In this document: one piece after another, positions 15,001 through 21,000 of the stretch
Numbering within the stretch: position 1 is the first letter of the stretch
Layout of the letters: each line of letters begins with the position of its first letter
Source of the DNA: Bdellovibrionales bacterium
GTDB lineage: Bacteria; Bdellovibrionota; Bdellovibrionia; Bdellovibrionales; UBA1609
DNA: 64,000 nucleotides
Assembly: GCA_965261545.1 (NCBI GenBank)
Contig: CBDHDF010000010.1
Coordinates: forward strand, 160,001-224,000
Direction of reading: 5' to 3'
Program-made: the position numbers

Positions 15001-18000
15001 ATTTTCAATGGTCCCACCCTGAAAAAGCTCCTCAATGAAGTTTTCAAGCTCTTTACAAATCATACTTGCTTGAATGAGAATGTTCTGGGGAGTGGCCTCC
15101 TTGTAGGCGCGACTGGGCTCCGGGAGGTGTTCGTTTTTGGTGATGTACTCTCCGAGTTTACCTTTGGTCCTCTTGTGGCGAGCGAGGAGCTGTTTTTGAA
15201 AGTAAATCTCCACACTCTCCACTCCAATTTTTACATCTACATACTCCCCTCGGTGCTGAAACGGAGCCGAGTAGAAGTTGGATTCAACGCTCACATGACA
15301 GTCTTGGTGGAGTTTTTTCTTCTCCCAACGTCCCCACCGGTAGGGAAAAGAAGGCAAGGGTTTTAAAGTTTTTACCTCTCGTTGAAATTTTTCATTGCGA
15401 GAGACCTTAAATCTTGTGTGAGGGCGAGCATTTATCTTCTCGCACACCTCCCTTAAAGCCTTATTAATTTGATCCAGACTGGTGAAGGTCTCTCGTCTGT
15501 ACATGAACCTGAGGGCCCTTGTAACGAGCTTCACGGCATTCTCAGTAAGGCTTTTATCCTGGGGACGACGAACTCGAGCGGGAACAGCCACCGTGTCATA
15601 GTGTTCCAAAAGCTCTTGGTAGGATTTATTCAACTCTGGATCATACAAATGGGGTGTGTTCACTCCAGTCTTTAAATTATCAGGAACAACCACTCTCGGA
15701 ACCCCACCGTAATATTCAAACATCAGAACGTGAGCGTGAAGAAAATCTTCACTAGATTCGCTCAAAGAGCCATAAGCAAAAATACGCTGAGAGAAACATA
15801 GATTTGAGCAAAATATATGGGCCTTATGAATATTAAGGTCTTCATCGATCCACTCTGGCTGAAACCCTGCGTAATCAACCTCAACTTGGTGGCCTGGCTG
15901 AAAATCACGCAAGGTAATAATCCTTTTGCCAGCTTTTGGAAATTGCTTATGAAACTCCCTCGTAAACTGGGGGTAGCTAATGACCTTCAGAAATTTTTCC
16001 TCCCAAACGTCACTTAAACAATGCCTATCCTCAATCTCCTTCTCAATAATCTTCCAATCTATACCGTAAGACCAAGGGGGAATTTCTCTTTGGGTCTTCC
16101 AATCCTTGGGGTCTGTTAAAAGACCACGTCTTATCTTTCTAAGAGTCTTGGTGCAGCATTTCATGCGGCGACTGATTTCTCGGTCGGGAATATTTGCCTT
16201 TATTAATGATTTTATTTTTGTGTAACGCTCATGATCCATCTTTGTTCTCATTTCGACCTCCTTGGTTAAAGATTGGAGGTCTTTATAGAACATCAATGAC
16301 GCTATGCTAAGGGGAATCAGTCATGCCAATCAGTGCGGGCAATGCCATGGTTCGCCGGGCGAACTGAGATAAGATAGGGGGTTAGAGTCCCCCGAGAGGA
16401 AGGTCAACCGACCACTTCTCTCCCCAAGCCGTGCGCGGTCGGCCGTGAGGCCGAAGCGATGTATCGGTAGGGGTGTGTGTGGGCCAAATAATTGAGCGTC
16501 GAAAATGCCGAACTCTGGAGTGCGGAGGCTGTCATGGTAGCCGAACGCAACATACCCACCAGCGCTATGGTGAGTTGGTGGGTAACTCCACGGCGTCGTA
16601 GAAACTGGCACATACATGAATCTTATCTCGGGACCTCGGGAGGTCTTTATTTAACCCCGTCATGTGCGACGGGCGACATGGGAAAGGAGGTAACCGTAAC
16701 CCATGAACGAAATAAAGAAATCGGATCCACTCATAGTAGCGATGAAGAGGACGAACAAAGGGCCTACAAGCCCAGCGGAGTCCTTGGAGCGAAGGGGTGG
16801 AACTGAAGGGAACTCAATCCGTCAAAGCATCTGCCGAACACAGAGTTGGGAAAAGGTGTCACAGGCGACGGAGCGAGTCCGTATAGCAGCAAAGAGAAAG
16901 GATGGTAAGCTCACTTGCTTGCTTCACCATGTATCTGTGGAAGCCCTCCACTTGGCTTACCTCTATTTGAATAGGGGAGCCAGTGCGGGAGTGGACCATT
17001 TAACATGGAAGGAGTATGGCGAGAACCTCGTGCAAAACCTGTTCGATTTACATCGTCGGGTCCACACTACTCCCCGGACACAATGGCAAACTTTTGGAGG
17101 TTGGCACAACGTGTCGAACTACAATTTCACTTGCCTTAATGTTCACCTCAACCTCCTTCACCAGTAGCCTTACAATCTCCTTTTTTTGCTCAAAACTCAA
17201 TACCTTTAAATTGGCACTCACTTTTTTTTGGAATTCTTGGAGTTGATCTACAAGCTGTAGTTGTTGTCCTTCTTGCCTTTGCTCATACTCTAAAGATTGC
17301 TTTTCATTTTCAAGTTGCTTTATTTTTCCTCTTATTTTTTTTAATCGTGACTCTATTTCTGATAGATTTAGAGTTCCATTTTGATAAAGATCCAAGAGAC
17401 GTTCCTTTTCATGTGTTATTTGACGAATCTCCTGAGCCTTTTTTACAATTAATTTTTCCAATGATTGTTGTTCACCTTTTTGCTCATGAATTCTACTTGT
17501 ATACTCATCTATAACTGTCTGAGGATTTTCAAGTAATTTAACTGTTTGTTCCCAAACTAAGTCATCTAAAACTTCAACTCTTACGGGATGAGATGAGCAA
17601 ACTCTACCTTTAGCTGGCCACCTATAACCATCTTGTCCCATGCAGCGATAATAACAAAGCTTATACCTTGAGTGAGAAGCAGGTTTGCCATAGATCGAAT
17701 AACCACACTCTTTGCATCGTAAAAGACCACTTAACAAATACTCATATTTTTTATTATTCCGAGAGGAAAGTTTTTTGTTAGCTTCCAATTGGCTGGACGC
17801 ATCTTGAAAAGTTTTTGAAGAAATTATAGATGGAACGGGAATATATATCCAATCCTTTTTATTTCGATTGGAAGAACTTGATTTATGTTTTTTTGGATAA
17901 AAATTATTGTCTCTTGCGAACTTGGTTGGACGCAACCTTTCTACCTTGATAGTCTTTCTAAAAGCAGCTTGTCCATAATAAGCGGGATTTTTAAGCATAC

Positions 18001-21000
18001 ACAAGATAGTTGAACGCCCCCAAATACCTTGTTGTCTTCTAGTAGGCACCCCCCTTATATTTAATTCCTTTGCAATTGCTCTAATACTTAGTTTGTTTCG
18101 GCAATACATTTGAAAAATATTTTTAACAACTTTAGACTCTTCTGGATGGATTTCATATCGTGCGTCAGCGGAGTCTGTTTTCAGAATATATATATAACCA
18201 TAGGGGGCTCCACATAAAACGCTAACAAAGCCCTTAGAAGCCTTTTGAAGTTTACCCCTTCGACTTCTTTCCATAATTTTTTCTCTTTCATATTCTGAAA
18301 TGACTCCTTGTATTTGTAGCAAAAGCTGATCTTCGGGTGAATTTGTAATATCTCTATTAGAAAAAATAATTTCAACACCTAGCCTCTGAAATTCTTCAAT
18401 TAGAATCAATTGATGGGCATATTTACGAGCTAATCTGTCTGGACATAACACAAGTACCTTTGTAACCTCCCCAGAAAAAGCTTTGTCGCGAAGAGAGTCT
18501 AAAGCAGGACGAACAAGGGTGGCGCCACTCACACCATTATCCATAAATATAAGATCCTCCTCTACACAAAAATTGTGTTCCTTAGCGAAATCGTGAAGAC
18601 TAGAAATCTGTGAATCAATGGTTCCCTCTTGAGCTTGTTTATCTGAGGACACTCGACAATAAAGAGCTACTGATGTTTCCATTTTTAACCTCCATTATTT
18701 TCTGTTGTTTTACTTTCTGCTTTAATTGTTTCTTTATTTTTGGAACAACAACTTCGTATGTCTGTTGAATCCGTGTGGTTTGGTCGCTTTGATAGACACT
18801 TTTTAGCTGAGCTGTCCATGGATTTTGATGTTTTGTTTGGTGGGCCATTATCATTCCTTTGACTATGGTTCGAAGCTAAATGGGAAGAATCCTCAGGTGG
18901 ATGCCAACGATAGTGAGCATATTTACGACCACTTGCATAAAGTGAATGATTATATATATTTATGGAAATTTCAATGGAAAAGTTGTCTATTGTGTCCGAG
19001 GAGTAACGGGTGCTTACAAAGGGCAACCTGTCTTGCGGGTAGAAATACCCAAGTCAGACGGGGGCACAAGACCCTTGGGTGTCCTGGCCTTGGAGGACAA
19101 GATTGTCCAGAAGGCCGTTGTAGACAGCATCCTCTCTCCCATCTACGAGGAACATTTCCTCGGTTATAGCTACGGATTCCGTCCAGGGCGTGGAGCGCAT
19201 AATGCGTTGGATGCTCTGGCTTACGGAATAGAGCGTAGAAAGATCAGCTACATATTGGATGCGGATATAAAATCCTACTTCGATAGCGTGGATAGAAAGA
19301 CTCTAATTCGCTTTCTAAAACACCTCATCGGAGATGAGAGACTCATTCGTCTCTTTGAAAAGTGGCTCAAGTGCGGAGTGCTATCTCAAGGCGTCTTAGA
19401 AGACACAGGGAGAGGGACCGTTCAAGGTTCAAATATTTCCCCTATCTTCGCCAACATATATTTACATTATGTGTTGGATTTATGGATGCAGAAATGGCGC
19501 AAGGACCATGCCACAGGGGACATGATATTTGTTCGCTACGCCGATGACTTTGTCGTAGGCTTTCAATACAAGGGGGAAGCTGAACGCTTCCTCAATGATC
19601 TGAAGCGCAGGCTTAAGGAGTTTTCTCTAGAAATACATCCGGGGAAAACTCGCCTCATAGAGTTCGGTCGATTTGCAAATGCAAATTGCCGCCGACGAGG
19701 TCTTGGTCACTCCGAGACTTTTGATTTCTTAGGATTCACTCACTTTTGTGTGCGCACGAGGAAAGGAGGCTTTAGGATAGGGCGTAAACCCATATCCAAG
19801 AGAGTCTGCCGGACCTTACAGCACCTGAAGCTGAGTCTGAGAAAACGAGTCTACACGAGGGACCTAGCGGAATGTGCAAAGTGGTTGGGTTTGGTCATCA
19901 AAGGCTGGCTCAATTATTTTGCGGTTCCAGGAAGTACGGTGTACCTACGAAAATTTATTTGCGCAATCAGGAGTGCTTGGATGAAAGCCATCCGACGACG
20001 CTCACAGCGTGGACGGAGATTCTCGTGGAAGAGGTTGGATAGAATGATTCGTCTATTCTGGCCTCGTATATCCATACGCCACCCGTGGCCAACAGATAGG
20101 TTCGCTATGCGGTACCACCTGAAGTAGGAGCCGGATGCTTTAACGAGCACGTCCGGATCTGTGCGGGGGGTGCGTGGCAACACGCATTCCTACCGTAACC
20201 AACTGGTGCGGGCAATGCCATGCAACTGGTGAGGGTAATGCCATGCAACTGGTGCGGGCAATGCCATGCAACTGGTGAGGGTAATGCCATGCAACTGGTG
20301 CGGGTAATGCCATGCAATCGGTGCGGGTAATACCATGCAACTGGTGAGGGCAATGCCATGCAATTTTACAATACTATCAGTTTAAGAAGAATCTACCCAC
20401 AAGATTGACTCTGCAAGTGCTTTGTATTGAACTTTTAAGGGATTGATGAAAATTTTAAGGCCTTAAACCGACAGTGTCGAGCTCAACCTATGACTAAATG
20501 CTGATTGAAGAGGGCACAAATTGACGCTGTGGGTATATAATCTACAGTATATCGTTAGCACACCCTTGATTGAAGTGAATCAGCATATGTCCAATATCTC
20601 GGGTTATAGACACCACCTCCTTTTCAAAAATTCTTAGGGTAGTATCAGTGGTGTCCTTCATGTATATCTGAGTGGCAACACACTGTACGAACTATGACAA
20701 TGGAGCCACCTAATCATTCTGGACTTTACTGGGATTTTCTACCCTGACTCCTTCTTGGCCCTTCCGAGTCACTAAGCAAGGCATCTGTAAACTTGGTGGT
20801 TGGAGTTAAGCCACGAAGGATTTGCTTTGTGGCTGCCTCTTGGAAGAATTGAAAAACCTCCACAGCAGAAAAATACATAAAGACCCAAAATAAAGTGCCT
20901 ACAATTAAATCAGTTAATGCTTTCATGATAATACCTCCATTTATGGTTTAAGTTGAATCCTCACTCTCTGGTAAGGGTGTTCATTTTATTTTCTCAGGTC

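Follow-up and report, generated by a model that had tools for sequence, protein, structure and literature searches.

The window analysed here, a 64,000-nt stretch of a Bdellovibrionales genome, contains a short recombinase element lodged in the reverse-transcriptase (RT) gene of a group II intron. This arrangement raises the question of whether such an element seeks out RT genes or merely came to rest in one.

Extent, genes and setting of the element

Comparison of the ends across copies places the element between two AC dinucleotides (Table 1). Its length is thereby corrected from the 1,936 bp of an earlier note on this DNA to 1,938 bp (17068-19005), and its terminal inverted repeats, previously estimated at about 30 bp, measure 28 nt (17068-17095 and 18978-19005). 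Only two genes lie between the ends, and both had been recognized before: one for a 544-residue recombinase, the other for a protein of 69 residues that overlaps the recombinase start. The recombinase contains Resolvase, Recombinase and Zn-ribbon domains (PF00239, PF07508 and PF13408) and the catalytic motif YCRVSS, in which S12 is invariant; its fold, including coiled coil and zinc ribbon, matches the SPbeta, Bxb1 and phiC31 integrases. No Pfam match to DUF4368 was obtained for it at E 0.001. A relaxase ORF is absent from the 1.9-kb element, as are the DDE transposase and target duplication that characterize DDE insertion sequences. The crossover comprises 2 nt, with palindromic attP arms and no longer duplication, and two junctions of the type B variant described below carry one extra T. 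A promoter scan returned 10 sites compared with 5.3 expected.

Table 1. Positions of the element and of its surroundings in the window
Feature	Position	Strand	Remarks
Element, type A	17068..19005	.	1,938 bp between two AC dinucleotides; end comparison across copies
Left junction	17066..17095	+	AC core 17066-17067 and 28-nt arm; within 3' end of recombinase gene
Right junction	18978..19007	+	28-nt arm and AC core 19006-19007
Large serine recombinase gene	17048..18682	-	544 aa in integrated form; final residues and stop supplied by target
Conserved small gene	18639..18848	-	69 aa; overlaps recombinase start; candidate directionality factor
Orphan coding piece	18874..19005	-	About 35 conserved residues; frame open as far as 18685
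Host group II intron	16350..20199	+	Element inside its ORF; D1-D4 match 16384-16605, domain V/VI match 20126-20199
Intron RT gene, 5' part	16703..17067	+	Residues 1-122 of 494
Intron RT gene, 3' part	19006..20127	+	Contains GTVQGSN-ISP, a degenerate and unused version of the target motif (approximately 19414-19457)
IS21-family transposase gene and first 23-bp end repeat	14935..16349	-	Houses the intron
Seven further IS21 23-bp repeat units	20200-20360		

The small gene is present in 22/23, 56/65 and 23/61 loci in three bands of recombinase identity. Its product belongs to no meaningful family in Pfam, PHROGs or Atlas and, modelled alone, forms a single helix (pTM 0.30). A role as directionality factor is a guess, to which we give slightly less than an even chance.

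The locus is nested at three levels, as the recombinase element interrupts an intron RT gene and the intron in turn occupies the end repeats of an IS21-family element. The motif GTVQGSN-ISP of the host intron itself is the weakest among four canonical sites and is empty in 9/9 copies.

Target sites in this genome and across the family

The genome holds 11 copies or fragments of the element, as counted before: six of type A, at most one base apart, and five of type B, at 97% identity. The earlier figures of nine copies with an RT flank and three intron families are both too low, since each of the 11 is flanked by RT on one side or both and four families are involved. Junctions could be mapped at 20 positions, 17 of them in RT genes; the remaining three are the two halves of one 5-oxoprolinase gene and one IS21-family end. 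The reported empty type A site, gtccac-AC-gggtgc, is indeed seen in four intron copies and its filled form at five left and six right junctions. The AC core is nevertheless particular to type A, type B using GT, GC or TT, and the identical position claimed for the type A copies in intron family fam24 does not extend to all six on both flanks, the copy at C2 409441 having an IS end on its left. Contigs of short reads from one sample, which is possibly the source of the genome and hence not independent, contain both alleles and both variants, so that the element is not an assembly artefact.

These copies define six distinct target sites, four of them within RT genes, although RT-coding sequence makes up 0.7% of the genome (p ~4e-8); for five of the six, empty and filled alleles coexist in the genome. 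Type B lies at bases 1 and 2 of the codon that follows GTPQGxx, in three intron families other than that of type A, each of which also has empty copies. Its one non-RT target is the hydantoinase/5-oxoprolinase gene, whose halves flank different copies on contigs C7 and C10, with the RT halves reciprocally swapped. Because no empty allele of this site was found among 40 relatives, its core had to be deduced. An unswapped locus in the genome has the core GT on the left, GC on the right and GT in the empty allele. Type A has a second target, the end repeat of another IS21-family element, which was hit once and again with an AC core. The ends of types A and B are almost identical. Many copies are disrupted by IS insertions, and IS copies in the genome run to hundreds.

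Beyond this genome, 3,936 of 8,000 candidate proteins match at 1e-30; we examined 80 of the 226 genome loci and 80 of the 571 metagenome loci, in each case the best ones. In loci with enough flank, an RT half adjoins the element in 13/19 cases at an identity of at least 50%, in 46/56 at 38.5-50% and in 2/56 below 38.5%. In 90 loci, with four of an IS5-associated clade left out, ends were called without reference to the flank. Of the resulting 122 ends, 98 adjoin RT, every one of them at the PQG codon; four more show the motif by eye, and 20 lie elsewhere, some of the non-RT ends in IS3, IS6 or IS630 genes. Among 36 two-sided loci, each orientation is represented 12 times, and 12 join like RT halves. 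The latter may be chimeric assemblies or products of recombination between copies, and could inflate core mismatches; the six two-sided loci on plasmids are all normal, without like-half joins. RT flanks were also found for 7/10 plasmid loci picked from the top 40 and for all five element copies of one genome (G061).

The named hosts belong to Acidobacteriota, Proteobacteria, Chloroflexota and Bdellovibrionota. In a FastTree phylogeny of 153 proteins (midpoint root, some deep nodes weak), 11 elements flanked by IS5 transposases form a clade nested among the RT-targeting ones, so that a switch of target has already taken place in this lineage. Since none of 60 relatives and one of 400 genomes of the phylum (three candidates scored in each of the latter) carries the element, it looks horizontally acquired.

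The proposal of an integrase with natural RT specificity across phyla is thus upheld as a strong family preference for one RT codon; strict specificity is rejected, given 20/122 non-RT ends abroad and 2/6 non-RT sites here. Two different conserved places in the RT had been proposed as well. The window site lies off the motif, where none of the 98 RT-adjoining ends abroad lies, and a second conserved site is rejected because the window site scores like background under a family target model. In this model, which was built from RT-anchored sites and in which codon conservation and recognition are confounded, the window site ranks in the top 10% and the oxoprolinase site in the top 13%, both background-like, and the IS end in the top 0.1%.

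A divided recombinase gene and the status of type A

In all 29 two-sided loci measured, the recombinase frame crosses the left junction. At the far end, the frame that would continue the recombinase over the joined ends runs without a stop for at least 20 codons in 50/51 sequences versus 9/49 and 19/49 for the other frames, and this piece is conserved as a protein, with changes mostly at third positions (bias 387/316/576). The full gene would accordingly exist only on a circle. The coding signal of the far-end piece is clear; its function as a C-terminal part of the enzyme is suggested by sequence. It matches no Pfam family, and none of 27 proteins with such a piece has a recombinase domain (21 of 27 inspected). 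The integrated recombinase gene lacks this conserved piece, which contradicts the self-contained LSR/att pair envisaged earlier. No joined-end junction occurs in contigs of four runs (one sample, possibly the source; contigs drop rare forms), and the joined-end pattern gave 0 matches in viral contigs and 0 in the genome itself, which is not proof of absence. A classification of 120 database proteins by their tails left 64 in no class and was dropped.

The cores are unequal between both junctions in 9/21 loci, which, like the free orientation, departs from the identical cores and fixed orientation of large serine recombinases. A staggered 2-nt cut, with the mismatch resolved at replication, would explain unequal cores and both orientations, albeit against the rule quoted in PMC11722253.

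Taken as a whole, the observations are in our judgement quite probably explained by a stand-alone integration module that prefers the RT PQG codon, whose gene is split on integration and of which type A represents a derived form lodged at a site outside the consensus. The module would consist of the large serine recombinase and one small gene between 28-bp arms, and would excise as a circle, on which end joining rebuilds a near-palindromic attP and restores the C-terminal piece of the recombinase. As junction comparison shows, the 2-nt core through which the element integrates covers bases 1 and 2 of the codon that follows GxPQGxx in a group II intron RT; insertion occurs in either orientation, splits the RT and truncates the recombinase. 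The arm ends read GGAGT-like outward and resemble the GGxV codons on the left side of the target core; by the same comparison, they mimic the target motif. Targeting amounts to a strong preference with stray sites, unequal cores would be tolerated, and element copies recombine with one another and exchange flanks. Type A, at its non-consensus site in an intron with a degenerate motif, would have multiplied by recombinase hops plus carriage by its intron and IS21 host.

Two other accounts of the family were weighed against this module. A low-specificity transposon of the TnpX/TndX type, to which RT genes are merely tolerated, repeated DNA, would accommodate the non-RT sites and ends, the unequal cores and the insertions in IS3, IS6 and IS630 genes. 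It is largely refuted by the codon-exact recurrence at all RT-adjoining ends, and with hundreds of IS copies on offer in this genome, three of four intron families are yet struck at the same codon; we regard it as highly improbable. Scarcely more credible is a host-beneficial or reversible switch, in which the element silences the intron and the RT is restored on excision. Excision would rebuild the RT exactly if the cores match, and filled and empty alleles do occur side by side, but many copies are broken by IS, a metabolic gene (oxoprolinase) is broken too, composite introns seem still to spread and no regulatory input was found.

Type A itself may be a decaying passenger, that is, one stray insertion copied through intron retrohoming in trans, IS21 transposition and gene conversion, with residue changes due to drift and any later hop due to the type B enzyme; we rate this at a little under one chance in two. 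The type A and B recombinases differ in 28 residues, two of which (positions 222 and 227) lie within a helix aligned with SPbeta Y237, a residue entering the major groove. At 18 of the 28, type A has the state that is less common in the family, including the loss of a W conserved in 27/30 relatives. Decay would also agree with the near identity of the A and B ends, with the one IS21 repeat unit shared by four of five full filled introns and with the four intact RT genes of this intron family, which could work in trans. Against it, the type A frame is intact and the changes concentrate in the recombinase (DNA-binding) domain: 17/28 fall there, more than the 32% that the family averages (p=0.002) and than the 41% of the highest relative (p=0.03). 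Synonymous differences show no such concentration (6/18), although the nonsynonymous/synonymous contrast is not significant (Fisher p=0.13). Moreover, type A is also found at an IS21 end with an AC core. Homing positions of three kinds are represented among the filled introns, and at intron SNP 16628 each of the two alleles is found among filled and among empty copies, which requires two state changes or recombination; one insertion followed by clonal copying is therefore insufficient, but gene conversion could suffice. The doubt voiced in the earlier note, a single insertion multiplied by intron copying, is removed for the family and only partly removed for type A, and the odds between retargeting and decay of type A are near even.

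A bolder reading, which we consider rather unlikely, is that minimal serine-integrase hyperparasites tracking conserved motifs of mobile elements (RT, and IS5 transposases in the nested clade), with an integrase gene split on integration, form an undescribed superfamily in which type A is now retargeting, by way of its DNA-binding domain, into an intron with a degenerate motif. If true, the two variants would offer a natural pair of specificities separated by 28 residues.

Relation to known integrases and transposons

No RT-targeting serine recombinase is described in the literature searched (subscription papers and bioRxiv supplements lie outside its coverage), and the family, which is widespread, accounts for broken RT genes of group II introns in a way that seems not to have been reported. 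The division of the integrase gene hints at a switch of directionality that would extend to phage WO. It also means that such recombinases are annotated in databases in truncated form, a point of consequence for anyone who assays them. Because integration at the degenerate coding motif depends neither on orientation nor on matching cores, and because A and B differ mainly in the DNA-binding domain, target recognition by serine integrases becomes directly testable.

The closest phage matches of the recombinase are from Wolbachia phage WOVitA1 (sr2WO; KX522565, HQ906662), at 36-37% identity over 96-98%. WOVitA1 shares the small upstream gene (E 4e-10 to the small-gene profile), and its attP lies within the 3' end of the recombinase gene, at the same codon, with similar arms and a similar C-terminal extension. 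The particle record and the prophage record separate precisely at the equivalent 2-nt core, which lies in the recombinase gene, and its authors detected attP in phage particles (10.1101/049049); by analogy, these records are the best support for a circular form of the present element. In contrast to the 65-kb WOVitA1 prophage with its non-coding target repeat VNTR-105 (PMC9203015, as excerpted), the element measures 1.9 kb, is multi-copy and targets RT coding sequence; it has none of the phage structural modules and no integration at VNTR-105. The same excerpts tie RTs to WO rearrangements, not as att sites.

Like Tn4451/Tn4453 (TnpX) and Tn5397 (TndX), as presented in the available part of PMC5704250, the element combines a large serine recombinase, a presumed circular intermediate, a 2-bp core and several copies and sites per genome. 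Those transposons, however, have low site specificity, bear genes for mobilisation and resistance and, according to the same part, do not depend on a directionality factor, whereas the element is cargo-free; its preferred target is exact to the codon (98/122 ends at a single RT codon), its small gene is conserved and its recombinase gene is split. In the multi-targeting clade, 63% have DUF4368 according to the portion of PMC10083194 covered. With the SPbeta, A118, Bxb1 and phiC31 integrases surveyed in that portion, the element has in common the domain order, the fold, palindromic attP arms of about 25 bp and a target in a coding motif; it differs in targeting the RT of another mobile element, in both orientations and with unequal cores. 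Neither RT, maturase, PF00078 nor GIIM is named as a target in the parts of the text and supplements of PMC10083194 that were covered. Integrative mobilizable elements whose insertion sites are conserved ICE genes (PMC5704250, same part) are likewise serine-recombinase elements parasitising a gene of another mobile element, but the present element is without a relaxase ORF and its host is a retroelement.

The element thus belongs neither to the sr2WO prophages nor to the TnpX-type transposons or the integrative mobilizable elements. The minimal serine-recombinase hyperparasite of the earlier note stands in its core, with RT targeting reduced to a preference and the integration module provided with a known phage counterpart in WOVitA1. 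By analogy with the latter, the element is best described as a site-specific serine integrase module of phage-WO type that has been pared down to 1.9 kb and has a retroelement as its target.

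Probable rearrangement, and intron homing

At C7:146916 and C10:793054 of the source genome, two copies of the element are found with their flanks exchanged. Because a 5-oxoprolinase gene and an intron reverse transcriptase (RT) gene are each divided across these two contigs, the exchanged flanks point to a rearrangement that took place through the element.

Within the array of 23-bp IS21 repeats, more than one unit serves as a homing site for the host intron; several units are used in this way, and this gives rise to the tandem introns at 1010-1016 kb of C10 and 940-944 kb of C11.

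Other recombinases

A stand-alone tyrosine integrase gene is present in four copies in the window (91-100% identity) and has many further relatives elsewhere in the source genome. Multiple copies of another large serine recombinase gene (687 aa, 23% identity) are likewise present in this genome. One of them is adjoined by an IstB-like gene; in the two copies viewed, an RT flank is absent.

Coordinates and loci of the features discussed
Feature	Location
IS21 repeat units beside the host intron	window 16327-16349, 20200-20360
Stand-alone tyrosine integrase	window 184-1374, 21551-22744, 26907-28097, 44849-45988
Second large serine recombinase	source genome C11:177051-179111 and about eight further places
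Sister clade in IS5-family transposase genes	L010, L012, L016-L018, L021, L023-L025, L030, L033
2.2-kb subtype	L171, L172, L174, L178, L179; L134, L135, L152, L153

Relatives of the element

A sister clade of the same 2-kb design (36-39% identity) is located in IS5-family transposase genes at the conserved RWVVER motif, and a single genome carries several copies. More distant relatives (33-35%; loci L044, L045, L049 and L050) reside in short tandem repeats, not in genes. In a 2.2-kb subtype, the small gene has an additional HTH/ribbon-helix-helix gene upstream of it.

As regards the Wolbachia phage WOVitA1, the C terminus of its recombinase is annotated differently in the particle and prophage records (L201, KX522565, versus L202, HQ906662), since attP lies inside the recombinase gene.
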